This document shows, piece after piece, positions 17,741 to 64,000 of a stretch of DNA of 64,000 nucleotides. The DNA lies in assembly GCA_039192515.1 (NCBI GenBank), contig JBCCXA010000009.1:925-64924 (forward strand), given 5' to 3'. Position numbers and translations under genes: made by a program. The DNA is from Verrucomicrobiota bacterium. GTDB taxonomy: Bacteria; Verrucomicrobiota; Verrucomicrobiia; Methylacidiphilales; JBCCWR01. Each line of letters opens with the position of its first letter. Positions within the stretch are counted from its first letter, which is position 1. The notes beneath the pieces were generated by a model. It saw nothing but the letters and a program-made list of their open reading frames with translations, did not search any database and was not told the DNA's origin.

Positions 17741-17859
17741 TGGTGTAGAAGGTTGGGGTTGACTGGTGGTTTTTAGGCGAGTATTTTTAGGGTATCAGCC
17801 TTGTCAATTGCAAGGCTTTGAGTAGTTGATTTAAATTCTCTCTTTGCGTCTATTTATTC

Positions 17860-19890: not shown

Positions 19891-19892
19891 TC

Positions 19893-41153: not shown

Positions 41154-41194
41154 TTAAAAGGCGTGGAATTCATTTTGTAAACAGCTGCGTTTTT

Positions 41195-42592: not shown

Positions 42593-42630
42593 AGTATTTT
42601 GAGCGCTGTGTCGCTCTACCAAGATGGTGC

Positions 42631-44544
42631 TTAACTAGAAGAAATAAAGATGTTATATCTTTCCAGTAAAGTGCCAGCAGTCTCAAAGAGTCTGATATAG
42701 GCCTTGTTGAGATCAACAGTTGCTGCTAGCTCCCGAACTTTAGCTTTATGAAGATCACGTCTAAACTTAAAAAGAGTATTTTCAGTGGTGAGACCTTTTT
42801 CAAGGCGTATTTCTTCCTCTTCATAGGAACGTTGAGCATTGGCATGAAAGAGTTGCATGGCCTCAAGGCGTTCTCGGTTAGATTCTATGATGGCAATAAG
42901 TTGTTGAAAGGCCAATGAGGTTTGTAGTTCGAGATTTTTTAGTTCTAGTATACTTTGTCTCTTTCGGTGTTGTGCTTCGTGCTTGCGACCAATGGCTTCG
43001 TCATTGCCGAGGGGAATGGAGAAGACCGCTCCGACGGACCATTCGGAGCCTTGACCTCCGAAAGATCGCGTGTAGCTACCCCCAATGCTAGGAGACAAGC
43101 CATTTATTCCGTAGGTGCCTTTAAGATCGAGTTGAGGCCAGACCTGGTTCTCGGCAAAAACGAGTCTGATATCTTCTCGCTCAACTTTTCGTTTAGCGAT
43201 TTTATATGCGGGGCTCGAGCTGAAGGCCTCGGCAACCAGATTGTTATAATCTAGATCAATATGGGGGATGATAAGCTTAGTTGTTGGAATAAAGACTGAA
43301 GTTCTATTAGGTGTGGGGTGGTTAGTCGTGAGAATTTGAAGTTCGGTCTGTTTGGCAAAGACTTCATTACGAGCTAGGACTAGTTCTTCAATGACTTCGG
43401 CAAGAGTTGCTTCTGCTTTATTGAGGTCGCCGGGGGAAACAAGCCCTTTTTCGAGTAGTTCCCTTTTTTCTTTGGCTAACTCAGAGGCTAGATCTTGCTC
43501 AAGCTCCTTGAGCTTTAAATTTCTCACGTGATACATGAGATCAAAGTAGGCTTTTAAGGTTTCGCTAACTGTTTCGAGCATAGCTGCTTCTAGCTCGAGC
43601 CTAGAGATCAATTTGTTTTTTCTAGCAACACGGATTTCTGCGAGGTTTACATCTGTTCCAAAATTACGGAGTAGCGGCTGGGTAAGTGTCATCCCGGTAA
43701 AGGTGCTATATTCTGGGCTAAATAAAGAAAGAGCGCTTTGCTGGGGACCTGACTCAATCAAGGTATTTCTTAGAATGTCTTGTTTAGTAAAGAGATCATA
43801 TTCAGTGCCCGTAGGGAGTTTGCCCTCTAACGATAGTTCATAGCTCCAGTTTTCTTCAGTGAAAATACGAGGATCGCTACTTAGAATAACTGCATTACCA
43901 CCACTACTAATAAATTCCTCGGTATTTTGAGGAGTACGTATCTTTTCATACTGTCCTTCAAAGGAGAGCTCGGGGTTAAATCCCCCAATCTGTTGTCGAA
44001 GAACATCTTGGGCGATGGAGATATCCAGTTTCTTCACTTCAACATCTAAGTTTTTTGTTAGAGATGAAGAAATAGCAGATGGCAAGTCCAGTGTAATTTC
44101 TGGCAGAGCTTCTAAAGTTGGGATTTTGTATTCATCTTCCGAGGAACTAGATGAGCCGTAGTATGTCGGCAAAGAATTCGGAGGCACGGAATCTGACTCT
44201 GGGATATCAGGTGGTGAGCCTGTAGGGGATTCGTTCAGTTCGGTTGTTTCTGTGGTTAGAGTTGGCTCTGTATTAGAACTGACAGCATCCAGGCCATCCG
44301 GCTCAAAAGGGTCGTCGTCCGAGCTAGTAGTGGTCGTTGTTGTTGAACTACTGGTGCTAGCAATCAAGCTTCCTGCAAGAAGCGCATGTTTCTTGGCTAG
44401 TGGAGACTCGAGTTTAGCAACCTGAGTAGAAGAGGATTTAGAGCAACCGACAACAACAACAGCAAAAATGAAGCTAGAGAGCAAAACATATATGCTCGTT
44501 ATCTTTAGTTTATTTTTATTTCCAAGCATGACATTTTTTAACAA
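42631..44544 (-). CDS. TolC-family outer membrane channel with long Ser/Thr/Pro-rich N-terminal extension
   Basis: TLTQPLLRNFG, AENQVWPQLDL, WSVGAVFSIPLG and heptad helices. Lipobox-like VVVVGC followed by a low-complexity linker. Confidence 0.88.
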   Translation of the reverse strand: MLKNVMLGNKNKLKITSIYVLLSSFIFAVVVVGCSKSSSTQVAKLESPLAKKHALLAGSLIASTSSSTTTTTTSSDDDPFEPDGLDAVSSNTEPTLTTETTELNESPTGSPPDIPESDSVPPNSLPTYYGSSSSSEDEYKIPTLEALPEITLDLPSAISSSLTKNLDVEVKKLDISIAQDVLRQQIGGFNPELSFEGQYEKIRTPQNTEEFISSGGNAVILSSDPRIFTEENWSYELSLEGKLPTGTEYDLFTKQDILRNTLIESGPQQSALSLFSPEYSTFTGMTLTQPLLRNFGTDVNLAEIRVARKNKLISRLELEAAMLETVSETLKAYFDLMYHVRNLKLKELEQDLASELAKEKRELLEKGLVSPGDLNKAEATLAEVIEELVLARNEVFAKQTELQILTTNHPTPNRTSVFIPTTKLIIPHIDLDYNNLVAEAFSSSPAYKIAKRKVEREDIRLVFAENQVWPQLDLKGTYGINGLSPSIGGSYTRSFGGQGSEWSVGAVFSIPLGNDEAIGRKHEAQHRKRQSILELKNLELQTSLAFQQLIAIIESNRERLEAMQLFHANAQRSYEEEEIRLEKGLTTENTLFKFRRDLHKAKVRELAATVDLNKAYIRLFETAGTLLERYNIFISSS

Positions 44545-44596
44545 CCCGCGAAAGTCTTTCAGATTCGCAAAGGCTTGTCAACTTTTGCTGGTTAAC

Positions 44597-46573
44597 CTAG
44601 ACCGCAGAAGATTTCCCGGAAAAGGATAGGTTTTCGTCTAACCAGGTGTCATGTTTCAGAACACGCTTTCTTGTCTTAAAAGCCATGCTTGAGGCCATCC
44701 ACTGAGCCCATGCGAATAAATGAATAATCCAACTGGGCAAAGGTTTAGGTAAGGTTCCACCCACAGCTTTTAAGAGAGAAAGTGGTAAAAACCGTAGGGT
44801 TAATTCGTCGTTAATAGATACAATAAACCGGGCGCTCCCAGGATCTCCTTGTCGGCCTGATCTACCAATGAGTTGTCTATCAATGCGAGATGACTCATGG
44901 ATCTCAGTAGCAATGACGTGAAGTCCTCCTAATTCTCTCACTCCGTGTCCGAGCTTTATATCTGTGCCACGTCCAGCCATGTTTGTGGCAATGGTTATCC
45001 GGCCAAGTTGTCCGGCTTTAGAGATAATTTGAGCTTCGTCTTCCTGCCGGAGGGCATTGAGGATTTCGAATTGTAACCCCATCTTACTGAGATGTTTGGC
45101 CACCAACTCGCTGCTTTGAACAGACCGTGTGCCGATTAGGAGGGGGCGATCCTTTTGATGCAATTTTTTTGCCTCGCAAGCAACAGCTTTCCATTTGTCG
45201 TTCTGAGAGGCAAAAATTTGGTCAGGGTATCTTTTGCGTAATGCAGGGCGGTGTGTAGGAATTTTTAGGACTGCTAGATGGTAGATTTGCCAGAGTTCTT
45301 CCTTGGATTCATATGCGGTTCCAGATAGACCCGAGAGGTTTGGATAACAACGAAAAAATCTTTGAAAGCTCATAGAAGCTATAGATTCATTAGGAGGTGT
45401 GATTTCTACGTTTTCTTTAGCTTCCACCGCTTGGTGCAATCCTTGTTGCCACGTGCGATGCTCCATAATCCGACCAGTGAATTCATCTATGAGTTCTATT
45501 TTTCCCTCGTTTATGGCATAATGAACATCTTTTAGATAAAATTCTCTTGCAATTAAAGCGGTACGAATGAGGTCGTGGAAGCGCTCCCTGTTTCGCCAAG
45601 CAGCAGGGAGAATCGAAGCTTTGCTAAAGAGTCGATCATTAATTTGAGATACGATACTGATTTCTCGGAACTTGAAATCAACCTGATAGTCTTGACCACG
45701 TTTTAGGGGTGCAATCAGCTTTTTAGCGTGAATACTGGCTGATTCGAGATCTTTATTCCTGACGCGTTGTGAAATAATAAGTGGTGTCACGGCTTCGTCA
45801 ATGAGGACGCTATCTGCTTCATCCACAATGGCAAAATGTAAACCACGCATGACTACACTTTGATGGCGGTTTTGTCTTTTTGCCAGATTACGAATCAGGC
45901 GGCGAGTGGGGTCATAGGGAGTACTTAAGGCTATACGATCTCTTAAAAAATCAGCTAAAGCTTCTTTTGGTGTAGTGTAGGTGATATGTGCTGCATAGGA
46001 TTTCTCGCGCTCATTAGCAGGCATGTGACCAGTGACGGATCCAACCGATAAGCCGAAAAAACGGAATAAAGCCTCCATCTCTTGACTGTCGCGTGAGGCT
46101 AAGTAATCGTTGGCTGTAATGACATGGCAAGGTCTACCTGTGCTTCCCATGAGAGTAGCAGCTAGTGCGACAGTAAGTGTTTTCCCCTCTCCGGTGGCCA
46201 TTTCAGCTAAATATCCATGGAATAGGCTGGCCGCACTAGCAAGTTGAACCGGGTAAGGACTTAGTTGTAGTGCTCGCTTTGCTCCGAGAACTAGCATAGC
46301 AAGACCTTCTGCTACGGCTTTATCTGTGGCAGGGAATTTGAGGAAATGAAGGCGCAGGTTTTTTAAACGGGATACAACCTCTTTGTCTGTAATGGACTCA
46401 TTTCGCTCAGCTATATGCTGAGCTTTCTTAGCTAATTCTAAAAAGTATTTTAGTGAACTTTTGCGGCGCTTGTATTTACCATGGAGTGAAAAAATAAAGG
46501 CATCAAGGCCTTGATAGCTTTTGCATTTTTCACTTGCTTTGAGCCGCCAATAATCTAACTGGAAATTTGACAT
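44597..46573 (-). CDS. Truncated SecA-like DEAD ATPase (NBD1-PPXD-NBD2 only)
   Basis: EMATGEGKT, TANDYLASRD, IVDEADSVLIDEA, GLHQAVEAKE, ATNMAGRGTDI and RIDRQLIGRSGRQGDPG. The protein ends about 70 aa after NBD2, so it lacks the wing domain and two-helix finger. Confidence 0.88.
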   Translation of the reverse strand: MSNFQLDYWRLKASEKCKSYQGLDAFIFSLHGKYKRRKSSLKYFLELAKKAQHIAERNESITDKEVVSRLKNLRLHFLKFPATDKAVAEGLAMLVLGAKRALQLSPYPVQLASAASLFHGYLAEMATGEGKTLTVALAATLMGSTGRPCHVITANDYLASRDSQEMEALFRFFGLSVGSVTGHMPANEREKSYAAHITYTTPKEALADFLRDRIALSTPYDPTRRLIRNLAKRQNRHQSVVMRGLHFAIVDEADSVLIDEAVTPLIISQRVRNKDLESASIHAKKLIAPLKRGQDYQVDFKFREISIVSQINDRLFSKASILPAAWRNRERFHDLIRTALIAREFYLKDVHYAINEGKIELIDEFTGRIMEHRTWQQGLHQAVEAKENVEITPPNESIASMSFQRFFRCYPNLSGLSGTAYESKEELWQIYHLAVLKIPTHRPALRKRYPDQIFASQNDKWKAVACEAKKLHQKDRPLLIGTRSVQSSELVAKHLSKMGLQFEILNALRQEDEAQIISKAGQLGRITIATNMAGRGTDIKLGHGVRELGGLHVIATEIHESSRIDRQLIGRSGRQGDPGSARFIVSINDELTLRFLPLSLLKAVGGTLPKPLPSWIIHLFAWAQWMASSMAFKTRKRVLKHDTWLDENLSFSGKSSAV

Positions 46574-46584
46574 CGGAAGGGTAG

Positions 46585-48738
46585 TTACAACTTGAGTCTG
46601 TCTTGAAGAACTTGCCTGATCAATCTCCAGCCTTGTTTGAGTAATGGTTCGTAACCAATATGAAAGCGAATTTGTCCTCTACGGTGTTGGACAAAATAAA
46701 CATTTTCTTGATTCTCAAGCTCTGCATAAATCATAAAGAAAGGCTCTTTGCTTGTAACCCCCTGAGGATCTTCTTGTGAAACTTCGATTTCACCACCACC
46801 ACCCCAACCTAGAGCGGGTGAAGGCAATGCTTTCTGCTCTCCGGGAATTCGAATCATATTGAGCACTTCAATTTCTTTACCAGCTTGACCTATCAGTCGG
46901 ACTGAAGCACCGCGTATCGATTGAAAGAAAACATCCGCAGCTTGTGGTTGCTCTACGATAGCAACAAAGCGATAGCTAGTAGGTTTGAGGAAGACTCCGA
47001 TTGGGGTGCCCTTGTGAAACCAGGCGCCGATTTGCTGGTCTAATTCAGGGGCGGCCCAAACTCCGTCATAGGGAGCTGTTATATTGAGGCGTTCTTTTTC
47101 CTCCAGATAGAATTTTAGATTTTTCCGTGCGCTTTCCAGTTTAAGCTGGACGGGTTTGATGCGAACATTTTCTTTAAAGGCTAGATTTTGCAAGGTAGCC
47201 CTAGATGCGCGTATCTCGGCCTGAGCTTGTTCAATTTTCCAGTCTAGTGCTAAGTCGCTAAACACCATGAGCTTATCACCTGCCTCTACTTTGGTGCCTG
47301 GACGCGTATAAACTTGCTCTAAGCGACCAGAGGTAGGCGCAAATAGCCGAAGGAATTTATCAGCTTCTACCACCCCGTGTGCTCTGGCATGCAGTGGAAA
47401 GGGTATAATGGCCAATAGGGTGATCGTGCCTACGAGAATTGAAAAAACGATGGTCAGGGCTCGGTTTCTAGTAGCGTCTAAGCCCGGGTCTGTAAACAGA
47501 TAGTAAAAAAATTTGTACAAAGGCATAGCTAACCAAATAAATGAAGTGATAGCTGCTAAGACAATACCTAGCCCAAAGAATTGGTCAGCCACGATGAGAG
47601 CAATACTCGTTAATAGAAAAATACGATAAAGGCCTGCACTTATTCCATAGATAGCCAACCAAATGCTTTCCGAGTTAGATTGTGCAGCAGGGAGCATGTG
47701 ACGGCATTTAAAGATAAATTTTTCCAAAAGGTATTTCAATTGCTGGTTGGAGCGTTGAGACATATTAGGGATTTCGATAAGGTCTGAGAGAATGTAATAG
47801 CCATCAAAACGCAAAAGAGGATTTATGTTAAATAAAAAGGTAGTGATGGATGCGATGACCATCAAATTATAGGCCATGGCATTCATAGTGGTATCCGAGG
47901 TATTGGCCCAAATGATGACAGCAATAGCTGCGAGGAAGAATTCAAAGATCATTCCGGCGGCTGCGACGTAAATGCGATTCCATTTACTGCGAAAGCCCCA
48001 ACTTGTTGTAGCGTCGACATAGGGAATGGGTGTGAAGATTAGTAACATGACACCTAACGTGCGCACTTCTCCTCCTAAGACCCGGCATATCAAACCATGA
48101 CCGAGTTCATGCCAAAACTTTGCAATCACACCACAGAGATAGAGCAGGAAAAGGTTTCCAGGAGATAGAAGGCCCTCTGTTTGATCAAGCGCAGCGTCCC
48201 AGTTTTCAAAGAGTTCTTTAGCTCCTAGAAAAATAACAATGGACCAAAGGATCATTCCCCAACGATTTAAGAGAGGCCTGAAAAAGGGAAGCAGTGCATT
48301 AATAAATGGAGTAGGGTCACAAAGAGAAATTTTAATAAAGAGGAAATTAAGAAATTTGCTTCGTAACTCCTTATGTTCTGCTTTACGGCGTCTTTCTGAC
48401 ATAGCTGAGACATCAGGAGGAAAGTCGGAGTGAATGAGGTTACCCTGTGTCAATTGGGCAAGAAGTCGGACGACTTCTTGCTGTCCGGGCGTTTCATCAG
48501 GATAAATTTCTAAACATTCATTCCAGACTTCTTCGATTGTTCGTTCGATTCGTAGTCTAGCTACAAAATGGTAGCCAGCAGGAGAAAGACGGAAGAATTT
48601 ATTGCTAAATGGTTCGCTTAAAACATACCAAGGCACTCCTCTATAGCTTTGACGTTCAACTCGAACACTGGGATGTAGCTGCGCACTACGACTAGCAATA
48701 CGGTGCCAAGACTCACTGAATAATGAACTCCGATTCAT
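46585..48738 (-). CDS. M50 (site-2 protease) membrane protein fused to an HlyD-like adaptor; PqqD/RRE-like N-terminus
   Basis: HELGH and NINPLLRFDGYY motifs, several TMs, and a C-terminal barrel-sandwich (APTSGRLEQV...ITAPYDGVW). Confidence 0.85.
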   Translation of the reverse strand: MNRSSLFSESWHRIASRSAQLHPSVRVERQSYRGVPWYVLSEPFSNKFFRLSPAGYHFVARLRIERTIEEVWNECLEIYPDETPGQQEVVRLLAQLTQGNLIHSDFPPDVSAMSERRRKAEHKELRSKFLNFLFIKISLCDPTPFINALLPFFRPLLNRWGMILWSIVIFLGAKELFENWDAALDQTEGLLSPGNLFLLYLCGVIAKFWHELGHGLICRVLGGEVRTLGVMLLIFTPIPYVDATTSWGFRSKWNRIYVAAAGMIFEFFLAAIAVIIWANTSDTTMNAMAYNLMVIASITTFLFNINPLLRFDGYYILSDLIEIPNMSQRSNQQLKYLLEKFIFKCRHMLPAAQSNSESIWLAIYGISAGLYRIFLLTSIALIVADQFFGLGIVLAAITSFIWLAMPLYKFFYYLFTDPGLDATRNRALTIVFSILVGTITLLAIIPFPLHARAHGVVEADKFLRLFAPTSGRLEQVYTRPGTKVEAGDKLMVFSDLALDWKIEQAQAEIRASRATLQNLAFKENVRIKPVQLKLESARKNLKFYLEEKERLNITAPYDGVWAAPELDQQIGAWFHKGTPIGVFLKPTSYRFVAIVEQPQAADVFFQSIRGASVRLIGQAGKEIEVLNMIRIPGEQKALPSPALGWGGGGEIEVSQEDPQGVTSKEPFFMIYAELENQENVYFVQHRRGQIRFHIGYEPLLKQGWRLIRQVLQDRLKL

Positions 48739-48754
48739 ATTTTCTGATTGTATC

Positions 48755-50176
48755 CTAAAGCCACAATTTTAATCTTAAGAAATCAATAAGGCGATGGGTC
48801 ATCATGTAAAGGGGAGGCTTGGTGCCAGCATTGATTTTGACAATACCTGTCATGCCTGGGCGCCACCATTCATCCGGTGGACATTCGATGCTGCAGCGAA
48901 CATAAAAGACATTTTTTTTGTCGCGAGCAACTGCACTGGGCTCGATGAGTCTCACGGTGATGGGGTACTTGATTTCCGGGCGGCTCTTAAAAGCAATAGC
49001 TCCATCAGCTTTGACTAGGACTTCTTGAATATCCTCCTCTGGGATCATTGCTTGAGTATAAAGGTCTTCTAAACGGGCGATTTTCATAAGGACATCACCC
49101 TTTTCAACTGGAGCACCAATTTGTTCAGTAAGAGCTCCTTCGACGATGACACCGTCAAATGGGCTCACGATTTTTGAACGGCTTAATTTATAGCGGGTTT
49201 GTTTGAGTTCTGATTCAGACTGAGCTGCTTTAGCTGTGGCTATATGCATGTCACCAAGACTACTTTGACCAAGTGCGACTTGGGCTTCGCTTCGGTAGCG
49301 TTGCATAGTAGCCATGACTTCACTTTCTTGGAGTTTAAGTTCGCGAGTATCTAGGGCAATGAGTGGTTCCTCCTTTTTTACTTCCTTACCGGGAATGACA
49401 TGGACTTCTTTGATGTAGCCTTGGAAAGGAGCGGGTAGGTTGATGAGGGCATCCGTTTTTAAAATAAACTCTCCACTGACTTTGTAAGGCCATGGGTATA
49501 GGCATAAAAAAAGAAGCACGATTGTAACGAGTAGGCCCCCAAATTTCCACCATGTGTGTTCTGGTCCAAGAACGGTAGCCAACCAGCTGCGTGTTTTGTT
49601 CTCTCCGAGAAACCACCAACCTCTAGCGTATTTATGAAGTTCTTCGAGCCTTGGTGTAACTAGGTCACAAATTAACCGAAGTGCTTCTACTTCTGTTTCT
49701 TTAAACTGCGCGTTTTCTCTTTGCAAAGTGAGTGTACCAATGACTTGGGAATTTATTCTCAACGGCATTGACAGCATATTTGTTGCACCAAATTTTTGAT
49801 GAAAGTTTTGATGTTCTCGAGTGATGGTGAGTTCGTTGTCTTTAGTGGGCCAAACAACATTTTCATCTTGATCGGATGCTTCCAGCATTACCCGTTCGAG
49901 TTCTTGTGCGATCTCAGTTCTTTTTTCGATTTTATTTGAGTGACTTGTTGCTTTAAGTCTCATTTCATCGTCTTGCAAGCGGCCAATAGAAACACGTGTA
50001 CAACGAAAGTGAAAAACCAATTCATTGCAAAGAGAGAGTGCTGCGTGATCGTACCGACTACTTTGGTTGAGTAACGAGATCAGGTCCAGGGTGATCCATA
50101 GAGGTCCTTCTGGCATTTGATTATGCGTCTTAGAGGGCAATGAGGATGTTGTTTCAGACTCTATACTTTCTGACAT
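48755..50176 (-). CDS. GAF-domain / HlyD-family periplasmic adaptor fusion
   Basis: N-terminal GAF-like region (LSMPLRINSQVIGTLTLQR), one TM, then LPAPFQGYIKEVHV..G..V and IVSPFDGVIVEG. Confidence 0.85.
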   Translation of the reverse strand: MSESIESETTSSLPSKTHNQMPEGPLWITLDLISLLNQSSRYDHAALSLCNELVFHFRCTRVSIGRLQDDEMRLKATSHSNKIEKRTEIAQELERVMLEASDQDENVVWPTKDNELTITREHQNFHQKFGATNMLSMPLRINSQVIGTLTLQRENAQFKETEVEALRLICDLVTPRLEELHKYARGWWFLGENKTRSWLATVLGPEHTWWKFGGLLVTIVLLFLCLYPWPYKVSGEFILKTDALINLPAPFQGYIKEVHVIPGKEVKKEEPLIALDTRELKLQESEVMATMQRYRSEAQVALGQSSLGDMHIATAKAAQSESELKQTRYKLSRSKIVSPFDGVIVEGALTEQIGAPVEKGDVLMKIARLEDLYTQAMIPEEDIQEVLVKADGAIAFKSRPEIKYPITVRLIEPSAVARDKKNVFYVRCSIECPPDEWWRPGMTGIVKINAGTKPPLYMMTHRLIDFLRLKLWL

Positions 50177-50283
50177 CTAAGTAGAGACTATCTCAAGGTG
50201 TGGGTGTAGTCCTAGTAAATTTTGTTTTGGGAAAACAAGAAAAGAGAGTTAAGGTTTTAAGATAAGTCTTAGATAAGAAAAAG

Positions 50284-51039
50284 ATGTTCATGCGATGGAA
50301 TTTGATATGGTTGATCAGCTTCTTTGGGGTAGTGGAGACACAAGCGCAGAAGTCAGATTTTAAAAATAGCTTAGGTATGTTGTTTGTGACAGTTCCGAAC
50401 ACAGAAGTTTATTTCTCTGTCTATGAAACAAGCGTAAAAGATTATCAGGTTTTTGTAAAAGAAACGAAGCGCACAGTTAAAAAGCCTTCTTTTAAGCAGA
50501 ATGGGAATCATGCAGCAGTCAATGTCAGCTGGGAGGATGCGAAAGCTTTCTGTTACTGGCTAACGGCAAAGGAGAGAAAAGAGAAAATTATCTCAGCTAA
50601 ACAGTATTATCGATTACCCAACGATAAGGAATGGAGCTTAGCTTCTGGGATTAAGGGTGCAGCAGATGAATTCTCTTTCGAAGATAATTTAGATTTTGAA
50701 TATCCTTGGGGAAAAGAATGGCCACCGCCCCCAGATGCTGGAAATTACAGCCCTGATTTGTTTGTAGATAACTACTCCCATACCTCTCCGGTAGGCAGTT
50801 TTAAGCCTAACAAACTTGGTATTTATGATCTTGGAGGCAATGTTTGGGAGTGGTGTGAAGATATTTTTAATCAATCTCCAGATTATCGAATTCTTCGAGG
50901 GGCCTCCTGGCGTATGCGTTTGCCAAATGACCTTCTCTTGACCAATAAAATCGGTAACCGTCCGGACCTTAGGCTTTCCGTGTATGGCTTCCGAATTGTT
51001 TTGACGAAAGATAAAAAAGAAGAAGACGCACTTCAGTAG
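50284..51039 (+). CDS. Exported FGE-sulfatase (SUMF1/EgtB/PvdO) domain protein
   Basis: VNVSWEDAKAFCYWL, YRLPNDKEW, YPWG, PVGSFKPNKLGIYDLGGNVWEW, GFRIVL. Confidence 0.88.
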   Translation: MFMRWNLIWLISFFGVVETQAQKSDFKNSLGMLFVTVPNTEVYFSVYETSVKDYQVFVKETKRTVKKPSFKQNGNHAAVNVSWEDAKAFCYWLTAKERKEKIISAKQYYRLPNDKEWSLASGIKGAADEFSFEDNLDFEYPWGKEWPPPPDAGNYSPDLFVDNYSHTSPVGSFKPNKLGIYDLGGNVWEWCEDIFNQSPDYRILRGASWRMRLPNDLLLTNKIGNRPDLRLSVYGFRIVLTKDKKEEDALQ

Positions 51040-51043
51040 GTTG

Positions 51044-51838
51044 CTAACTGGCAGCACCCACTTTTTTAGCATATCCTTGAACACTTGCTAGCAGCGTAGC
51101 AAGAAAGCCTGCAATGGTAACTAAGGAGCCAATCATTTCGCCTTTGTTCAATTCTAATTGATCACCTTCTTTAAATTGGCGAGTGTGGTCGGACATTTTG
51201 CGAGTTAGGCCGAGGATGGGCTCTCCGGAATCTGATTTAGCAGGCGTTTGCGACAAAGTAATCGTTCTAATTTTAAAGATATATTTGCCATCTTGGCAGA
51301 TCTCTTTTGTTGCTTTTCCTTCAAACATAATCATGCCTCTAGAAAAATCCATTAGGCTAAGAATTTGTTCTTGGAGCTCAGAAGATGCTGAGTATTTATC
51401 TTTCAAAAACTTGAATTTATCTGGGACTGGAAGATTCATAAACTCTTGACGGTCTTTGCCAGTGATTTTTTGGATTTCAGTGGCGTCGTTTTTGCCAGCA
51501 GATTTGTAATCACATAGGGCTAGCACAGTTCTGCAATCCTCTAATAGTGGCACAATGGTCGACAAAGCCTCTGTGATAAGATTTCGAGTAAGCCAATCTT
51601 GAGAAGCATTTTTTGCTGCCTCAAAGGAGCGTCTTTCTTTTTGTTGGGGTTGAACAGGAAATTGATTGGTAACACTATCGTAATCCTCTTCACTAACTTT
51701 GCGATATCCCGCGAGGTTCACCATCGCGATATCGAAAAGACGTTGATAAACATTTAGGTAACGATCTGCGATCTCGTTTAAACTAATCTTTTGTCCTGTA
51801 GGAGCTTCTTTTGTTTGGTTAGGCATGTTTGACATCAT
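51044..51838 (-). CDS. Hypothetical protein
   Basis: 264-aa ORF with normal composition and no recognised motif. Confidence 0.7.
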   Translation of the reverse strand: MMSNMPNQTKEAPTGQKISLNEIADRYLNVYQRLFDIAMVNLAGYRKVSEEDYDSVTNQFPVQPQQKERRSFEAAKNASQDWLTRNLITEALSTIVPLLEDCRTVLALCDYKSAGKNDATEIQKITGKDRQEFMNLPVPDKFKFLKDKYSASSELQEQILSLMDFSRGMIMFEGKATKEICQDGKYIFKIRTITLSQTPAKSDSGEPILGLTRKMSDHTRQFKEGDQLELNKGEMIGSLVTIAGFLATLLASVQGYAKKVGAAS

Positions 51839-52139
51839 TATCTAAAACCGCAGAAGGTCAATAGTTTGTTCAGTAAGCATGCGATTATTGTATTTTTCAT
51901 AAATTAATATAATTACAATAATGAAATAGAATTTATACATAAACTTTAGCATAGTTCGATGATGATTGGAGAGTTGAAATTAATCCAGTTTTATCTGATT
52001 AATACTTGATTATAACAGTGCTGTCTTCAGAATCAAACAAGTCTTTGGTTGCGAAAGACTGTTAATGTTGGGAGGGTTTAGATGGCAGGAATATTACCTG
52101 TCATCGTATCCCTATTTATACCAAAAAGAGGTAATAAAT

Positions 52140-55100
52140 ATGGCTAAGACAAAAACTAAAAATCGGAATCGCTGGAAACAACCCCGAAAGCACAAGAAAA
52201 TCCCAAGGCATCTGCAATATGATTTGCAAACATTAGAGCCGAGGCTTTTATTTTCTGCCGCCTTGTATGATCCTGGAGATGGCGGCGGTTCTGGGGATAG
52301 TGATGTCGCAACGAATATAGAAACGCAGTTAACGGATACTTTTACTTTTCTCGGCAAGTATGCAGACGAGATAGGAACCGAAGAGGCAGCAGATTCCTCA
52401 GCAGTTCCTTTTTTCCAATCAAGCGTTGAGGATTTATTAGGTTTTGAGATTGAAGACTTTTTAAAGGGTGGGTCAGGTAGTGATGCATATAGCCAAGTAG
52501 TTGATGACTACTTTGACAATGCGAGTCCGGATTCCACAGGCCTTGCTGCTGACCTACAGAGCGCAGTGCAGAACACCTTTGGAGTTGGATCTGTTACGGA
52601 TACAGGCTCGGACAATGATAATCTGATATTAAATTTCTCTATCGATCTGAATGAAGTTACAAAGGACCTAAAATTTGGCACCGAAGCTCAGGAGTTTTTC
52701 TTAGAATATGGAGCAGGTGCCCAAGTAAAGTTTAATGCGGATGCCATAACGTTCTCTATTAAAGCTGATTTAAGTGGAGTGGATAATGTGGCAACAGATG
52801 AAACAGATAACTCCTCTAACGATAGCCTTTATTCAGTCGAGTTTGGTGGCAGTGATAAAGACACGTTATCTATAATGGGTTCTTCGAGTCATACCAATAG
52901 TCTAGATCCCTTAACCGGATTTGGAGTTGGTTTTGGACTCATTGATGCTCGGGATGATGTAATGGACTCGGGTGGTTATGTTGCTAACACAGGCGGGACT
53001 TTCTCTTTTAATCTTCAACTTGATTTTATCTTGGAGAGTTCTTTGTCTGCTGATAGTAAGCTCAGTCTGGATGAGCTCAGAGCAATTGATACTGCTTCAT
53101 CATATGAAAGCATCTACAGAGTGGATACTCCAACCGGTGCGGGTGTTAATGAAGGTGAACTCTTTTTACCAATCCAAGTAGCTAACCCAGCAGGGGATGA
53201 GTTTATTAGCGGTATTGATGGTATCACCGGAGACTTTACCTTTACCGATAACGATCTTTTTGATAGCCGTTCACCCTTGGTTCAAGCAAGTGATCAGACA
53301 TTAGCTTCTTTTTCGAGGATGACTGCTGATGATCTTTTACAGTTTGTTAAAAACGCTACCTATCTCTTTGGTCAGAGTTCAGATCTAACAGAGATGCAAA
53401 ATTTTCTTCCATTACTTGATCTTAACCTGGGCCAAGCGTATGATTTCCTGGAGGCTTCAGAAAAAGCATTAGTTGATCCTTTAGTCATCATTGAGAATGT
53501 ATTACGCATCAAAGATGCGCCATCAACAAGTGGTGATCCACTTGATTACACGGGTAATAGTAGCTTTCAAATTTATGTCTTTTACCAAGGTGTCTTAGAA
53601 GGTGGTGCCTTGCAAATCATTACTCTCAATGCGAATAGCTCCCGTGCTTCACTGCAAGATGTTGCCGATGACTTAAATATTGCGCTCGCTGCCGCTGCCG
53701 CAGGGACCCAAAGAGTCTTCGCACGGGTAACCGAAACCGCTTCTCCTCGGCTAGAGTTGTATGGTGTAGATGCGGATACGACCTTCTTCATTAGTAGTGT
53801 GAATCCAAGTGGAGAAACATTAGATCTTGGTATTGATCCTTATGGACTGGTCTTTGCTCGAAACAATGGAACGATCTCGAGCAATCAAAATGAGAAATAT
53901 CAGCTACAAGAAGTTAAGGTAGAGTCTTCCACCGCCATAGAGGTAAGTCATTTTACAACACTAAAGACTTTTACTGTAGCAATTGGCTCTGACAGCGCGA
54001 CCACCATTACTTTGCCTCCAAGTGTTTATGGCTCTATGGCAGATTTTGTATTTGCCTTACAATCGGCTTTAGCGGAGGCTGGCGTCTACGATGCGAGCAC
54101 GGGCGAGGGAATTGAGGTGGATGAAGCTACTTCCGGGGATAGTCAGGGCTTCGGGGTAACTTTTTCTATTAGTGGTTCTCGTTCAGGGGAAACACTAACG
54201 CTTGGGGGTAGTGATGTGGGGATTTTCCAGTTAAGTGCGACAAGTGGAGCGAGCTCCTATACCTCGGCAACTCCTGTAGAACTCTCTCCTTTTGAGTCGG
54301 GGTTATCTCTGACTATTTCATTCAGCTCTCAGCAGGCTGGGCTATTGGCGACAACTACAGAGACTATTTCGATTCCCGCAGGAAAATATGCGTCCGTCGA
54401 TGATGTGATTTTTGCTATTCGCGAAGCTCTTCAAAGCAATGGTCTTTATGATGCTTTTACGAATACGGGGATATTGATTGAGAAGATTCCTGTGGGTGGT
54501 GGCGAAGGTATACGTTTTTATACCTCGGCAGAGGTTTATGAGCTAACCATTTCTACCTCTAGTAATAGCCTCATAGGATTATCCAGTACGAGTGAAAGCG
54601 CTACGGCGGCTTACATTGATATTGATGTGAAGCAAGATGGCAATGCATCCGCAACGACTACTCGAGTTTACATCAATGGCAACACAACGACAGATCTTTT
54701 AGGAAATTCCACCAACACCTCTGTTTCAGACTTTGTTAGTGATGTGCAAAGTGCTTTGACTCGAGCAGGTTTAAGGGACTCTCTTTCTGGAACTGGAGTG
54801 GATATTCGCTCCTTTGACCAGAATGGGAGTTCAACTGATTATTTAGAATTCTTTGCATTAAATCCAGGTGCCGGTTCTGGCTTTATCCAAGAAATTTCGA
54901 CTGGAGCTTCTGCTTCATTTGGTATGGATGACTATAACTTAGATGGATTGGCTGCCCAAGTAATGGCTTTATCTGCCGAGGATCAAAAACCTCGGTTTAG
55001 TAATGTGCAAGAATTTGTCGCGCTCCTTAATCAATCTACGGGATTACCACAGGTCAGTGTGGACCTTAATGGCTCCGCTGATGGTGTGGAGATCAGCCGT

Positions 55101-61100: not shown

Positions 61101-64000
61101 TTAGACGGATTCTATATTTTTAATCCAACTCAGACTGACTCTTTAAGTCCTCCAACTAGCGATCTAATAGAAATTGGAATAGAAGCTCAACTAGATGGAG
61201 ATATCAACACCCCTGGGATTCAAGCTTTTGTTCAAAGCGATAGCATTAGTCAGTTGAATCAGTTATCTATGTCTGTGGCAGATGGACGAATTGATTACAG
61301 CACGGATGGTCGTGCTTCAGGATTTTTTGGAACCTACGAGTTTAATTTAAATGTAGATGATACTCAACTTGCCACTGGATCCCATAGCAGAGTTGGGCGC
61401 AATAGTGTCGGAGTGACGACCGATCAACTCCGCAATAACGAAGTGCTCGGGCCTGAATCTGAAGCAGATACCTTGTTGAATTTTGAAATTAATGCGGATG
61501 CCGACATTCATTTATTAGCAGAGACAGCACGTGACTCTTTGATTCCTTCCTATCAAATGGATATCATCATGGCCAAGCGCTATGGAACGGGTTACGCGCC
61601 TTTGGTGTTTGATAATAAGTTAGCAGGCTTGGGAACCAGCGCTGAGGCTCAAGCTTTGGGAGATAAGATTATCGATGCTGCTAATGGAGTCACCGTGGAA
61701 GGAGATGCTGACTACCCTACAGATGCAGATTTCCAATCCTCTTCACCAGATTGGAGAGTCAATAGAGATACTCTTACGGATAATGCTCAGGAGGGGCAAA
61801 CATTCCTTGCTTTCCAGAACATTACTATTGATATCAGAGATTATCTCAGTGGACCTATCTATACGTTGCTTCAGTACTATGATGAGGGGACCGAAGAAAT
61901 TCGCCCTTATATTGAGTTTCTAACAAGTCCTGTTCCCGGAACAGAGTGGATGGCCGAGCCTTTCACAGTTGGAGATTTCTTGGGTCCTGAATTCCAAATA
62001 TTTCTATCAGTTATTAGTACGCTAGACAGCTTGCTAGGACCAGTCGTCCAATATGCTCAGGTTAATGAAAGTGGCTCGAGTCGATCTCGAGTAGGCATAG
62101 GAGGAACCTCTGATGGAATTTCCTTGGGTGTTGAAAAGGCATTTGAAAATAATGCTTCTTCATCCGGGAACAAAGAACGCTTTGATCGATATGATGAAGC
62201 ATCAGATCAACGTGCTTACGACGAGCAAACACGAGGGTTGTTAGATGAACTTCCTGCAGGTGAAAGTGAAAGCTCATCTGACAATCGCAGTGCTCTCAGT
62301 AAGTTTGGAGATACATTAAATGAGAAGCTGACAACACCCAATAAGTTTAGCGAGAAATTTGAGCAAGTCAGAGATGGAGATGTTGGTTGGTTAAAAAATA
62401 ATGACAATCCGACGGGCGTAAAAGACAAACTTTTAAATGATGTTAAATCACAAACTCGTGATTCCCTGGAGTCTGATGACCAAGGCACCTCGAAACAGAT
62501 TGAGGCGGGTATTTCCGGTGGAGGCTTCCAGCTCGAAGCGCTTTCCGTTAATACCGCACTGACTTTATTTAATGGGGGAACAGCTGATTTATTGCGCATA
62601 GAAGTTCCTCAGGTCTCCGTATCCTTTACCATATCCAGATATTTTCCGCTGCCTGCGTTTCCACCTCTGGGAGTCACTCTTGGCTTTACCATAGAAATTT
62701 TTGTTCAATTGAGTTTTGGATTTGATGATAGAGGATTCTACTGGACAGATCGTGATACTTCAGGATTAACGCTTGAGGAGAGCGAGCGCATTCCAACTTT
62801 TGGTTTTGCAGGAACATTTTCAGTGGGTGTTGCCCTGAATTTAGGATTGATTGAAGCGGGCATAGAAGCCTTCTTTGAAGTTGGAGTAGAGTTTTATTGG
62901 AATACACCAGAGAACAGCAGTAAGTTGAGGCAAGAGGAGATTAACTGGTTGTTTGACAACGGGAGGTCTCTCTTTGATATCCGAGTCTATGGTAAAGTAG
63001 GGGTGGAAATCTATGTCGACCTAACGATTCCCATTCCATTTGTCGGCCCGATTACAAAGCGTATTTTCTCACAAACCTTCGAAGTTTTTCTTTTCGATGA
63101 GTTCATTGACTTTGATAGTGGCGTGATTCAGCTTGCTCAGCAATCAGGTGATACGTTGCGCCTCAATATGGGGACTTATGCGAGTGATCGTATCTTTATT
63201 GATGTAGATGATATCAGTGAAGTTTACAGAATCTACAGTATTGATACAGATGGCTCTGCCAATGGTGAAGATATTATTGTGGCCTACTATGGAGCGGATC
63301 GAACCTATTACAGTAAGTATACAGGTATTAAACACATCTATGGCTATGCCGGAGACGGACAAACGATTATAGATGCTGGAGGTTCTCTGTCCGGTGTGGA
63401 TATTGACTTTGAAGAGGGTGGAAGTTTTTCTGGTGACCTTTCGGCTCTGAAATATGCCAGTGTGAATTTCTTTGGCGGTGACGGTTCTACCTTTTTACGC
63501 ACAGCAGGAACTTCTCAATGGGGACGTTCTCGTTTAGACGCAAAAGAAAGCTCAGGAACTCTGGATGCTACCCAAGCTACACGAGGCACTGTCCTAATAG
63601 CTGGTCAAGGCAATACCGTTATTCAAGGTAGCCAGTATGATGATGACATTGTTTCTAATATAGGTTCGGATATTCTGAGAGGTAATGGAGGCGGAGATAC
63701 TTTTCATTTCTTAACAGAATTCGGTCGCGACAGAATTTATGTGAGTGGAGACAATAATACGGTTTCCTTTGATGATGGTTCTTTAAGCGGTTTTGCAGTA
63801 GGCGGTGACTATGTCTTACCGACTCATACAGTTGGAGCTAAATTTCAGTTTGGGCCATTAGTCCAGAGTGTTAAATTGGACACACACACCGCATTTTTTG
63901 CGGTTGATCCGAGTGGTGTTGATCGCATTGATACTTGGGTAGGAACTGCGGGTGATGATATTTGGAATGTTTTTTACTTTGCTCCAGGTACTAAGAATGA
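52140..64000 (+). CDS. Giant (>3950 aa) extracellular repeat protein with LEPRxLL leader, 3'-truncated by the window edge
   Basis: ATG 52140 has RBS AAGAGG. N-terminus MAKTKTKNRNRWKQPRKHKKIPRHLQYDLQTLEPRLLFSA. The ORF track has no ORF in this frame, consistent with no stop before the window end. Frame checked at 52233, 58380 and 63663 (GSDILRGNGGGDTF, RTX-like). Confidence 0.88.
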   Translation, partial: MAKTKTKNRNRWKQPRKHKKIPRHLQYDLQTLEPRLLFSAALYDPGDGGGSGDSDVATNIETQLTDTFTFLGKYADEIGTEEAADSSAVPFFQSSVEDLLGFEIEDFLKGGSGSDAYSQVVDDYFDNASPDSTGLAADLQSAVQNTFGVGSVTDTGSDNDNLILNFSIDLNEVTKDLKFGTEAQEFFLEYGAGAQVKFNADAITFSIKADLSGVDNVATDETDNSSNDSLYSVEFGGSDKDTLSIMGSSSHTNSLDPLTGFGVGFGLIDARDDVMDSGGYVANTGGTFSFNLQLDFILESSLSADSKLSLDELRAIDTASSYESIYRVDTPTGAGVNEGELFLPIQVANPAGDEFISGIDGITGDFTFTDNDLFDSRSPLVQASDQTLASFSRMTADDLLQFVKNATYLFGQSSDLTEMQNFLPLLDLNLGQAYDFLEASEKALVDPLVIIENVLRIKDAPSTSGDPLDYTGNSSFQIYVFYQGVLEGGALQIITLNANSSRASLQDVADDLNIALAAAAAGTQRVFARVTETASPRLELYGVDADTTFFISSVNPSGETLDLGIDPYGLVFARNNGTISSNQNEKYQLQEVKVESSTAIEVSHFTTLKTFTVAIGSDSATTITLPPSVYGSMADFVFALQSALAEAGVYDASTGEGIEVDEATSGDSQGFGVTFSISGSRSGETLTLGGSDVGIFQLSATSGASSYTSATPVELSPFESGLSLTISFSSQQAGLLATTTETISIPAGKYASVDDVIFAIREALQSNGLYDAFTNTGILIEKIPVGGGEGIRFYTSAEVYELTISTSSNSLIGLSSTSESATAAYIDIDVKQDGNASATTTRVYINGNTTTDLLGNSTNTSVSDFVSDVQSALTRAGLRDSLSGTGVDIRSFDQNGSSTDYLEFFALNPGAGSGFIQEISTGASASFGMDDYNLDGLAAQVMALSAEDQKPRFSNVQEFVALLNQSTGLPQVSVDLNGSADGVEISRWSANTTSVEVTGGTGKGFLNLDADLVDNANTEITSSSAVDLSNFTVDTTLFVSVNGAAAVTATIKGDTYNSMADLVDAISIALREAGLADGLLSSPAVYNGGDIVNGVSPYFTFPIHLYVDEYFGDEGLADLTDVDMRFESSYGETATGQISNLSAEKQVTVSRSSEISFDLGLNLIQPKTSSEELVVELPVIIQDWDGQLDSYDALFKVILDDGVVHDVLVLASDTALNTSTEDFVANINAALSAVDIGGGVMLSSLVVASLDMVNDFERDVIRFTTVAGSSRSLAVEVPEYISEDTTYNNDAAVKLGFTTNVSTGNLDDFDVLAGATQIDASGVLPNNPDYDVYYRVKLEDSVTGATDAFVFSTKATDTSGNTNLAQLIVDINNAHSSVDFEAFDNGGNLGFQILGVNYDIIRVDVAKNQYLATETDPIIADNPVDVSDFVLATDAFFEFILPDGTSQILTIEVEDTTDNASLDDLVNDLNQAIQATSALMDNGVYQKIIAFIEGVGGNNHLAFRLDTTNVYPSGGDWRMTVIAQYNESVTNAASFELAMAEETYRDTRYALIGPIIGSLADADSILVNDFLLDISINGSDYETVTVLASDTSANTSIGDLIADINTSLANTSITVAGNSYTVSQFIDAIALSGGDVVQLAVRDDAPVPLLNVRFDPTTDSNNGYIDLGFSSEESQIGIRGSDATLDNIFLTGRAEVRDADVSGKGSLGFADFSFDHTDFDAITETTLGLTGNMTSMLDLMRYLGSYEAEYSAVEIDHSLTIEDDTFARVEFQDLAFLEDSVTENTLTGLTFDPTSTIVLAYQPNGNGASSSIGVGGSDLFKLPEADLSFNNTNDIELISRLTFDDIALSLWHVGDFISDWMNNDPNGPFAANLFFAKTGIVDVQDFGEEFSAIMAQLWANPPENLQEVQRALESGLNLDAGDVTVELVTSGSGSTFNASLRVAFDFITTFASTLPLYIDLAMLSDRSSNSGLVKQSLLGLSSLSSSLSDPMEVELEGLSKLQLDMDLVLVENGEVIEPKAILNQPNSGEFFETKFFVTGDSYTGDLPAGANRLRLGYSWFDETGREVLAPDTGTAPVGATVATTGELAATYDDATDRLTSTSVGALVVDGITLTEQGSDGAPGDYVLVKDQSDPTQNGLYEVIESGDGATAWILERTDSDLSWLKVSVNSGSIFGDRIFMVKDISNVDVVAAATTSVGNSYNLQSYPFLNYIDAGSSLTIDGVTPEHGDFVLLTGQQLGSTGAPNGVYQVQINSGTYELYLMDIGQGTIGQADVTGGSLAGNSYFVDFNNITNNIQQRGVAELTPYNVVELRSAAVAVSEGGEVALPDVNGTPQIYDTDETTLDENDIPAADFTVEVSTTEEVAGTFSGGTITLNVLSAPVIDGVTLAAGDLVMVNHQGDGSQNGIYQLTESSGIWTLTRVSTYDDLSDTLNVKVTVASGTTYGGFEFKMAETISEFNASIVRFSKLIKPASFIINLSDFNGTKDKQLPYHAVAASTSDLLVSADGSSTASFDLSTGTITADQNGSLNRYVTQVWDEQTGQVINIIGIDGVTNLRVGDRVLLKDIGRTELNPSGASYGSYTGDYRNGIYEVVSLGGSTSQWELKRVDFADEASEFDQLKIGVQRGSYNLDTRYIQTLFNPLSLGAGTNIGFTDDIAFVYGNYDSNGNLVGSWVDFSADGNAAAALPLSVVMVPSGGGETVITKNLASLTDDEKEALGQLGEAILEDDLYLAAPDLDALKIFVADDTDASDDGFAGSGLEKFFDTSDIAVTFDPLPDLFRTVPPSDVLSLVRDWVFMGDALDLALFNLQFAMDQALGIEVPLLGTSLPSYTGFIEEFRDDLTTRVRENLRLDTLKPANAIRDALYAALGPNGLGYLTDITDIVVMAGDTVWDIDNTSDTTFYGTTAEGLLFEKVSQSSLEFSFSISKSLDTDATAVAIDSIESGDQSIGLSISNSTVSQNSDGVVTSTTGGVQLKRSFELNFGFGMDILDGFYIFNPTQTDSLSPPTSDLIEIGIEAQLDGDINTPGIQAFVQSDSISQLNQLSMSVADGRIDYSTDGRASGFFGTYEFNLNVDDTQLATGSHSRVGRNSVGVTTDQLRNNEVLGPESEADTLLNFEINADADIHLLAETARDSLIPSYQMDIIMAKRYGTGYAPLVFDNKLAGLGTSAEAQALGDKIIDAANGVTVEGDADYPTDADFQSSSPDWRVNRDTLTDNAQEGQTFLAFQNITIDIRDYLSGPIYTLLQYYDEGTEEIRPYIEFLTSPVPGTEWMAEPFTVGDFLGPEFQIFLSVISTLDSLLGPVVQYAQVNESGSSRSRVGIGGTSDGISLGVEKAFENNASSSGNKERFDRYDEASDQRAYDEQTRGLLDELPAGESESSSDNRSALSKFGDTLNEKLTTPNKFSEKFEQVRDGDVGWLKNNDNPTGVKDKLLNDVKSQTRDSLESDDQGTSKQIEAGISGGGFQLEALSVNTALTLFNGGTADLLRIEVPQVSVSFTISRYFPLPAFPPLGVTLGFTIEIFVQLSFGFDDRGFYWTDRDTSGLTLEESERIPTFGFAGTFSVGVALNLGLIEAGIEAFFEVGVEFYWNTPENSSKLRQEEINWLFDNGRSLFDIRVYGKVGVEIYVDLTIPIPFVGPITKRIFSQTFEVFLFDEFIDFDSGVIQLAQQSGDTLRLNMGTYASDRIFIDVDDISEVYRIYSIDTDGSANGEDIIVAYYGADRTYYSKYTGIKHIYGYAGDGQTIIDAGGSLSGVDIDFEEGGSFSGDLSALKYASVNFFGGDGSTFLRTAGTSQWGRSRLDAKESSGTLDATQATRGTVLIAGQGNTVIQGSQYDDDIVSNIGSDILRGNGGGDTFHFLTEFGRDRIYVSGDNNTVSFDDGSLSGFAVGGDYVLPTHTVGAKFQFGPLVQSVKLDTHTAFFAVDPSGVDRIDTWVGTAGDDIWNVFYFAPGTKN
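53640..56970 (+). repeat. About 10 divergent protein-level repeats with a helical 'S..DLV.DIN.AL' motif in the giant protein
   Basis: Examples: SRASLQDVADDLNIAL, YGSMADFVFALQSAL, NTSVSDFVSDVQSAL, YNSMADLVDAISIAL, NTNLAQLIVDINNA, NASLDDLVNDLNQAI and NTSIGDLIADINTSL, spaced about 100-160 aa apart. Confidence 0.7.
58370..59970 (+). repeat. Four protein-level repeats 'A.T...IDGVT..GD.VL....Q....NG.Y.V....W.L.R' in the giant protein
   Basis: Copies near 58370, 58700, 59200 and 59610, for example VDGITL..GDYVLVKDQSDPTQNGLYEV..WILER and IDGVTLAAGDLVMVNHQGDGSQNGIYQL..WTLTR. Confidence 0.8.

Follow-up and report, generated by a model that had tools for sequence, protein, structure and literature searches.

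A 64,000-nucleotide stretch of contig JBCCXA010000009.1 from a Verrucomicrobiota bacterium (GCA_039192515.1) carries genes for a candidate protein export machine and, divergent from them, the gene for a giant LEPR-XLL protein, its presumed cargo. This whole stretch, referred to below as the window, corresponds to C9:925-64924 in genome coordinates, where C9 is the source contig. Four open reading frames (ORFs) are arranged in a row on the minus strand with intergenic gaps of 16, 11 and 52 bp. These encode a GAF-HlyD adaptor of 473 amino acids (48755-50176), a 717-amino-acid fusion of a PqqD(RRE)-like domain, an M50 intramembrane metalloprotease and an HlyD adaptor, called M50-HlyD hereafter (46585-48738), a short (‘wingless’) SecA paralogue of 658 amino acids (44597-46573), and a TolC-family outer-membrane factor of 637 amino acids (42631-44544). 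The giant protein is encoded on the plus strand from position 52140 to the end of the window at 64000, and its gene continues outside the window to C9:70502. The original prediction, made from the letters of the window, had described the operon with these same gaps and without an ABC transporter, and had noted the divergent giant protein with a basic LEPRLLFS leader that lacks a hydrophobic core. The ORF listing and Pfam searches confirm the operon, Pfam likewise detects no ABC gene within it, and the description of the giant protein holds, with a full length of 5,812 amino acids. The ORF list and Pfam also reveal no SecY-like gene in the operon.

The short SecA is matched by the Pfam families SecA_DEAD (285 bits), SecA_PP_bind and P-loop_SecA, and the scaffold/wing domain (SecA_SW) was unmatched in the same scan. 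The protein scores under every NCBIfam SecA and SecA2 cut-off (best 557 bits versus a cut-off of 862) and aligns with residues 12-604 of B. subtilis SecA (E ~1e-127), with the alignment stopping at residue 604. Its motifs are intact (Walker A MATGEGKTLT with lysine K131, DEADSVLIDEA, NMAGRGTDIKLG and GRSGRQGDPG), and both the ATPase motifs and the preprotein clamp (PPXD) are retained. An AlphaFold2 model (predicted local distance difference test score, pLDDT, 86; predicted template modelling score, pTM, 0.82) comprises NBD1, PPXD and NBD2 and ends in a single long helix at residues 614-649, where the scaffold begins. Alignment and model both indicate that the wing domain, the two-helix finger and the C-terminal linker/tail are missing. 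The genome carries two SecA_DEAD genes, this one and a 1017-amino-acid canonical SecA ORF on contig C6.

Thousands of relatives of the short SecA were found, and the best 120 are nearly all 653-678 amino acids long and about 50% identical, with the ATPase core and clamp under strong conservation. A truncation artefact or pseudogene was therefore rejected, because a length of ~660 amino acids and the termini of the protein are conserved in hundreds of homologues. The N-terminal extension of the family (first 35 amino acids), which is absent in canonical SecA, has nearly invariant residues Y8, G22, D24 and G32 and may be a docking element. The C-terminal tail of the family, DTWLDExLSFxG, is also nearly invariant (window 44597-44640). 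Similar tails were observed at the C-termini of proteobacterial giant proteins (...DSWLFEYWTEDVVL, ...VDWWLESVEL, ...FDDWQEELAL and ...FDYWVENLTL) whose genes end just upstream of the cassette tolC gene in loci L018, L030, L035, L052 and L082; the giant protein of the window has no such tail. These similar tails of the proteobacterial giants and the short SecA may be a shared docking peptide.

The M50-HlyD protein is matched by Peptidase_M50 (PF02163) with 27.9 bits, just over the cut-off of 27.2, and by HlyD_3. At its N-terminus lies a weak match to PqqD (PF05402; 16.9 bits, E=0.008, under the cut-off of 23.4), and this match is found in 35 of 62 M50-HlyD homologues. In the AlphaFold2 model (pLDDT 84.5), residues 19-98 form a cytoplasmic beta3-alpha3 domain (strands 19-51, helices 53-98) whose topology is consistent with RRE/PqqD domains, a winged-helix fold that binds leader peptides. 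The NCBIfam model daptide_HExxH aligns over residues 22-405 (1.4e-46), below its family cut-off. The zinc motifs HExxH (H210, E211, H214) and NxxPxxxxDG (N304, P307, D312, G313) are invariant in the 62 sequences. The model places at least five transmembrane helices within residues 159-444, followed by the adaptor domain at residues 446-717, and Foldseek matches this periplasmic domain to MacA, MexA and AcrA (E ~1e-11). The type I adaptor model TIGR01843 scores 42 bits on HlyD versus a cut-off of 208, pointing to a generic HlyD/MFP fold only.

The GAF-HlyD assignment is based on Pfam (GAF 33.6 bits, HlyD_D23 59 bits, HlyD_3 52 bits), on a scan for transmembrane segments and on comparison of loci. 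The protein consists of a cytoplasmic GAF domain (residues 50-173), one transmembrane helix (residues 212-230) and a periplasmic membrane-fusion domain. The TolC protein is matched by Pfam OEP in two stretches (135 bits) and by TIGR01844 with 90 bits, under the subfamily cut-off of 225. It carries a lipoprotein signal (…VVVVGC) and a linker of ~270 amino acids rich in Ser, Thr, Asp and Glu, and the genome encodes only one further TolC homologue.

The ORF of the giant protein comprises 5,837 codons from its first ATG and runs past the end of the window. Translation probably starts at the ATG at 52140, which has AAGAGG 8 nucleotides ahead of it and gives the length of 5,812 amino acids. The leader (52140-52259, plus strand) reads MAKTKTKNRNRWKQPRKHKKIPRHLQYDLQT-LEPRLLFSA, such that the motif follows a basic stretch of 31 residues from the start, and no hydrophobic segment was detected in the first 200 amino acids. 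The NCBIfam model NF012209 (LEPR-8K) matches the protein with 18.9 bits in the genome search, over its cut-off of 17, and with 16.2 bits when a 500-amino-acid fragment is scanned alone. The genome encodes no other LEPR protein. The giant is acidic, contains no Cys, and is matched by no Pfam domain, HemolysinCabind included; an RTX block is also missing, with two isolated nonapeptide matches in 5,837 amino acids. The C-terminus (C9:70400-70502; L086:8400-8514) consists of SVPETS, a 15-amino-acid hydrophobic stretch LGVWTAGALLLVPVV and a basic tail KSVDMLAKAKKAVKTMMSLF (KSVDMLAKAKK…), an arrangement of motif, hydrophobic helix and basic tail that is reminiscent of a PEP-CTERM-type sorting signal. 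Sec-dependent export of the giant protein was rejected on the grounds that its first 200 amino acids contain no hydrophobic core.

Conservation of the cassette and its association with LEPR-XLL proteins

A scan of one genome per species yielded at least 593 genomes with a relative of M50-HlyD. These belong to Verrucomicrobiota, Planctomycetota, Lentisphaerota, Desulfobacterota, Gamma- and Betaproteobacteria, Nitrospira, Spirochaetota and Fibrobacter, and cultured carriers include Vreelandella aquamarina, Limnohabitans sp. DCL3, Pseudomaricurvus alkylphenolicus, Thiomicrospira microaerophila and Pseudacidovorax intermedius. A tractable carrier is Methylorubrum extorquens AM1 (META1p2399-2402). 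The M50-HlyD family is tight at ~718 amino acids and lies on the same contigs as the short SecA family (~660 amino acids). A neighbourhood set of 83 loci was assembled via M50-HlyD, and counts were limited to loci with enough flanking sequence. The GAF-HlyD gene is present in 67 of 69 loci, upstream of M50-HlyD, the short SecA gene in 62 of 66, and a TolC gene in 20 of the 34 loci that extend over at least 18 kb. When the search was begun from SecA instead, all three loci looked up contain OEP, (small HlyD), GAF-HlyD, M50-HlyD and short SecA genes. Thus, GAF-HlyD, M50-HlyD and short SecA, often with TolC, form a unit that is conserved across hundreds of species, which is the outcome anticipated for the gene-neighbourhood comparison that the original prediction had proposed.

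That prediction had also named an ABC or RND pump consistently co-occurring with such loci as the observation that would count against it. Clustering of the neighbouring ORFs of the 83 loci revealed no conserved ABC, RND or MFS family within 9 kb; ABC ATPase matches occur in 3 of the 83 loci and are mutually unrelated. The ABC exporters of the window’s own genome are encoded on other contigs and not beside these HlyD genes, and the one MacAB-like pair of HlyD and ABC genes is likewise on another contig. No PrtD-type ABC transporter of type I secretion systems (T1SS; model TIGR01842) scored over the cut-off in 21 genomes carrying the cassette, in a search in which no positive control scored over the cut-off either. 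The best TIGR01842 score in the window’s genome is 224 bits versus a cut-off of 510, with HlyB-type models not run separately. A classical T1SS was rejected as a description of the locus, given that there is no conserved ABC gene, that HlyD falls far below the type I cut-off, and that the cargo lacks RTX and C-terminal T1SS features.

The window has two adaptor genes only. Most other loci also encode a third, small adaptor of the HlyD/Biotin_lipoyl type (54 ORFs in the neighbour clustering), which is absent both from the window and from the locus of the closest subtype, L005. We read this absence as subtype variation and not as exclusion from the family. The window locus belongs to a two-adaptor verrucomicrobial subtype, which it shares with L005 and L014 and which has characteristic neighbours between the operon and the divergent giant ORF. 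One of these is a gene for an FGE-sulfatase-like protein with the fold of formylglycine-generating enzyme (50284-51039, plus strand; PF03781, 108 bits), which has orthologues adjoining the cassette in L005 and L014. The other encodes a 264-amino-acid protein (51044-51838, minus strand) that has no match in Pfam or NCBIfam and is tail-anchored by a C-terminal transmembrane helix at residues 235-253; its orthologue occupies the same position in L005 (314 bits). Both are possible accessory genes of the subtype, and their products may modify or escort the cargo.

Association with LEPR-XLL proteins is apparent at several levels. A regular expression for the LEPR motif matches the loci 18 times, whereas reversed sequences give 1 match and shuffled sequences 3; of the 18, 15 mark the N-terminus of a large ORF that neighbours the cassette. 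In at least 18 loci other than that of the window, large ORFs adjoining the cassette are headed by an N-terminal LEPR motif. The motif is found 12-45 residues into the protein, after a basic, non-hydrophobic stretch, and its extended consensus is [FY]x[LVF]ExLE[PQ]RxLLSADP, with the variants FEPR and LEER also present among the loci. At the level of genomes, NF012209 exceeds its cut-off in 11 of 12 genomes with the cassette, from several phyla, versus none of 14 controls, and the longest ORF matched encodes 23,847 amino acids. For example, Limnohabitans sp. DCL3 (G002, NZ_CP171842, ~2.426-2.522 Mb) encodes giant proteins of 23,847 and 7,890 amino acids directly upstream of the operon, and Vreelandella aquamarina (G003, NZ_CP085210, from 1,418,719) encodes a 20,892-amino-acid LEPR protein directly downstream of SecA. 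Both organisms are cultured and have complete genomes, and would be convenient experimental models.

Larger samples of genomes yield the same association. Among 251 Verrucomicrobiota genomes, 20 of the 21 that carry the cassette contain a LEPR match, versus 10 of the 230 that do not, and those ten matches are all weak; the carriers are spread across ~11 families. Among 201 Planctomycetota genomes the corresponding values are 20 of 25 and 1 of 176. In a sample of 400 Gammaproteobacteria genomes the comparison was run in reverse, starting from LEPR status, and the cassette was found in 19-23 of 26 LEPR-positive genomes, depending on where the score boundary is drawn, versus 1 of 20 LEPR-negative controls. 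Fisher tests give p values of ~3e-21 for Verrucomicrobiota, 6e-22 for Planctomycetota and 1e-40 for the pooled data. The presence of the cassette therefore predicts LEPR-XLL proteins, and vice versa. Phylogenetic profiling, another comparison advocated in the original prediction, thus reveals co-occurrence in three phyla, often with the genes directly adjacent.

Adjacency is not required for this association. Phycisphaerae encode up to 14 LEPR proteins per genome (E <=1e-3), of ordinary size and dispersed around the chromosome; 25 LEPR matches are found in genome G006 at a weaker threshold; and in genome G072 three LEPR giants are encoded 150-700 kb away from the cassette. Such scattered genes argue against simple genomic hitch-hiking and for a pathway with multiple substrates.

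A paralogous module that lacks SecA was also detected, with lower scores, in the Verrucomicrobiota and Planctomycetota scans. It consists of three HlyD proteins, namely a small HlyD, a GAF-less HlyD and an M50-HlyD (for example, loci L087-L091 from the Verrucomicrobiota genomes G018, G178, G238, G201 and G017). Neither SecA nor ABC nor LEPR proteins are encoded near these modules, which occur in ~36 of the 251 Verrucomicrobiota genomes. Their existence suggests that the membrane core is older and more general and that the version with SecA and GAF is the one tied to LEPR cargo; the paralogous module may represent the ancestral core.

Among other features of the window, genes for a GT2 glycosyltransferase and a CE4 polysaccharide deacetylase follow tolC on the same strand (40494-42622, minus strand). 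These were rejected as core parts and are probably outside the system, because neither has a homologue in any of the 83 related loci. Large ORFs of 2,594, 1,137 and 2,009 amino acids lie upstream (window 6661-25916). Scans for promoters and terminators in the window produced signal at the level of shuffled sequence only.

Prior descriptions and related systems

The original prediction had supposed that this combination of genes lacked experimental characterization. Indeed, our literature search found no paper that tests the cassette experimentally, and none linking it to LEPR-XLL proteins, but the combination itself had already been described in silico in 2015. Kamneva, Poudel and Ward (PLoS One, PMC4452313) reported a ‘secondary SecA_DEAD’ co-encoded with Peptidase_M50/HlyD, GAF/HlyD, HlyD and sometimes OEP proteins, without ABC transporters. 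In the model of these authors, ATPase activity comes from SecA_DEAD, and M50 may be the pore in the inner membrane. They inferred that the locus had been transferred horizontally, named no substrate, and called its biological role ‘completely unknown’. The locus in the window is a member of this cassette family. It has a second, wingless SecA_DEAD gene adjacent to M50/HlyD and GAF/HlyD genes, an OEP gene and no ABC gene, and the gene set, the phyla and the ATPase/pore hypothesis are the same. Unlike in the 2015 description, the cassette is here tied statistically to LEPR-XLL proteins, and the window represents a subtype with two adaptors instead of three, with TolC downstream of SecA and with the FGE-like and 264-amino-acid neighbours. 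Thus, the locus and the idea of an ATPase and a pore were known, and what is new is this member of a two-adaptor subtype and strong comparative support for an unpublished link to a cargo.

The proposal that the LEPRxLL leader serves as a targeting signal is supported by the co-occurrence described above, but it is not new either. According to the part of PMC8567305 that quotes Studholme 2004, the motif RRLxxExLExRxLLA was proposed in that earlier work as an N-terminal export signal. More recently, a 2026 preprint (bioRxiv 10.64898/2026.03.19.712371) reported Chlorochromatium LEPRxLL giants of 36,806 and 20,647 amino acids that flank a TolC gene; experiments there showed that both are expressed and pass into the partner cell. 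The preprint draws no link to a SecA/M50 cassette. West-Roberts et al. 2023 (bioRxiv 10.1101/2023.11.21.568195) found wingless modules of SecA_DEAD and PPXD inside giant proteins of Omnitrophota and Actinobacteria and suggested that the module helps to export the giant itself. The likeness lies in a SecA motor without scaffold and wing that is associated with giant-protein export. In contrast to our locus, that module resides in cis within the giant and beside type II/IV-like secretion genes, whereas here it is a separate 658-amino-acid protein in an operon with TolC, HlyD and M50 genes.

Characterized machineries share parts of this design. As in T1SS (HlyB-HlyD-TolC, or LapB-LapC-LapE with LapA), a TolC duct and HlyD adaptors suggest the logic of a one-step trans-envelope duct, and the giant protein resembles T1SS adhesins and RTX substrates, which are secreted unfolded, in being very large, acidic and Cys-poor. 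Unlike T1SS, the cassette has a SecA-like ATPase and no ABC transporter, an adaptor fused to an M50 protease, and cargo with an N-terminal leader and no RTX block instead of an uncleaved C-terminal signal. The short SecA retains the DEAD-box motor (NBD1-NBD2) and the PPXD clamp of canonical SecA and SecA2, yet it ends after the first scaffold helix, has an N-terminal extension and C-terminal tail of its own, and has HlyD, M50 and TolC as gene neighbours rather than the SecY2/Asp genes that accompany SecA2. An RRE-like fold joined to a membrane HExxH protease also recalls the machinery for ribosomally synthesized and post-translationally modified peptides (RiPPs; RRE/PqqD, the daptide and YydH/LiaK HExxH proteases, and PCAT ABC exporters), in which the leader is read and cut and the product is exported. 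Unlike in those systems, the substrate here is thousands of residues long, and the protease, which forms one polypeptide with a periplasmic adaptor, has SecA and TolC as partners instead of an ABC exporter.

A possible export route and its alternatives

The assignment of LEPR-XLL proteins as cargo is strongly supported, while the mechanism of their export is something that we infer. Near-exclusive travel with LEPR-XLL proteins makes the cassette very probably their export machine, and we consider it probable, well short of certain, that it exports leader-bearing proteins with the short SecA as the ATPase. As in the original prediction, M50-HlyD would provide the entry point at the inner membrane and SecA would be the motor. 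That interpretation is supported overall, and every computable check it named came out favourable.

We hypothesize that export would proceed as follows. The RRE-like domain, the SecA clamp, or both would bind the basic leader with its FxLExLEPRxLLSA motif in the cytoplasm. The short SecA would dock on the cytoplasmic face of a ring formed by the adaptors and M50, where the GAF domain may dock or gate. Driven by ATP, SecA would then feed the unfolded, Cys-free chain, N-terminus first, through an inner-membrane portal made of the M50 transmembrane domains, and the two adaptors, assembled into a mixed ring, would connect this portal with TolC. The leader would be cut off by the M50 protease, and the hydrophobic stretch and basic tail at the C-terminus of the giant protein may act as a stop or anchor that holds it on the cell. 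The full proposal, namely a distinct and widespread pathway in which the RRE reads the LEPR leader, a wingless SecA pushes the chain N-terminus first through the M50/adaptor portal and TolC, and M50 clips the leader, seems to us evenly balanced between being right and being wrong.

Several observations weigh against export powered by this SecA and against the strength of the association. The two-helix finger, the part of SecA believed to touch the substrate or push it at SecY, is missing from the short SecA, which may be unable to translocate. The SecA-less paralogues imply that the membrane part can work without this ATPase, and generic ABC exporters in every genome make an unlinked ABC partner possible. 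The RRE assignment of the M50-HlyD N-domain falls below the Pfam threshold, and leader cleavage and transport direction are steps that we purely infer. No LEPR match was found in five Planctomycetota and one Verrucomicrobiota genomes that carry the cassette, and 3-7 LEPR-positive Gammaproteobacteria have no clear cassette orthologue. Because the genomes are phylogenetically related, the Fisher p values overstate significance. In addition, the M. extorquens operon was reported to be barely expressed in exponential phase (PMC4452313).

These points bear on three other explanations. Export through HlyD, M50 and TolC might be driven by the proton-motive force or an unlinked ABC transporter, with SecA as a cytoplasmic holdase, unfoldase or targeting factor that delivers the unfolded chain. 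The SecA-less three-HlyD/M50 modules, the missing finger and wing, and the generic ABC exporters of all genomes would fit such a division of labour, but the ATPase core and clamp of SecA are complete and strongly conserved, its gene belongs to the operon in 62 of 66 loci, no conserved ABC or RND gene is nearby, and LEPR proteins show no co-occurrence with the paralogues that lack SecA. We regard this explanation as unlikely. Slightly less likely still is a device for processing, retention or release, in which a GAF-controlled M50 protease cleaves the LEPR segment, comparable to the action of LapD and LapG on LapA, and export takes another route. A mere protease hardly explains a SecA motor with its clamp, a dedicated TolC and two or three adaptors, even though the M50 active site is invariant, the RRE-like domain is a predicted leader binder, the GAF domain suggests control by a ligand, and the giant protein of the window has an anchor-like C-terminal tail. 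Moreover, Sec or Tat features are missing from the leader, as is a T1SS-type C-terminal RTX region from the cargo, and therefore no other export route is evident.

The association itself could be due to hitch-hiking, if the cassette and LEPR genes travel on the same mobile islands but are functionally unrelated. Many LEPR genes do adjoin the cassette, and horizontal transfer of the locus has been inferred (Kamneva et al., PMC4452313). However, three phyla that differ in gene order all show the association, which also persists where LEPR genes are dispersed (G072 and Phycisphaerae), and only 1 of 176 Planctomycetota genomes without the cassette has a LEPR match, such that this explanation appears very improbable.

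To our knowledge, no characterized system couples a SecA-type motor to a TolC duct. If the proposed SecA-driven mechanism is true, the cassette would be a secretion system that joins the two and would explain how giant LEPR-XLL proteins leave the cell without a Sec, Tat or T1SS signal. It would cover the symbiosis proteins of Chlorochromatium, 20-36 thousand residues in length, as well as the ‘RRLxxExLExRxLLA’ surface proteins of Planctomycetes, and many of the largest proteins of bacteria (up to ~24,000 amino acids here), together with dozens of ordinary-sized surface proteins of Phycisphaerae, would be exported in this way. A SecA that works without the two-helix finger would also bear on the debate over how SecA moves polypeptides. 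Finally, the mechanism would give a role to the ‘secondary SecA’ of Gram-negative bacteria, with a pair of cargo and machine that is testable in cultured carriers.

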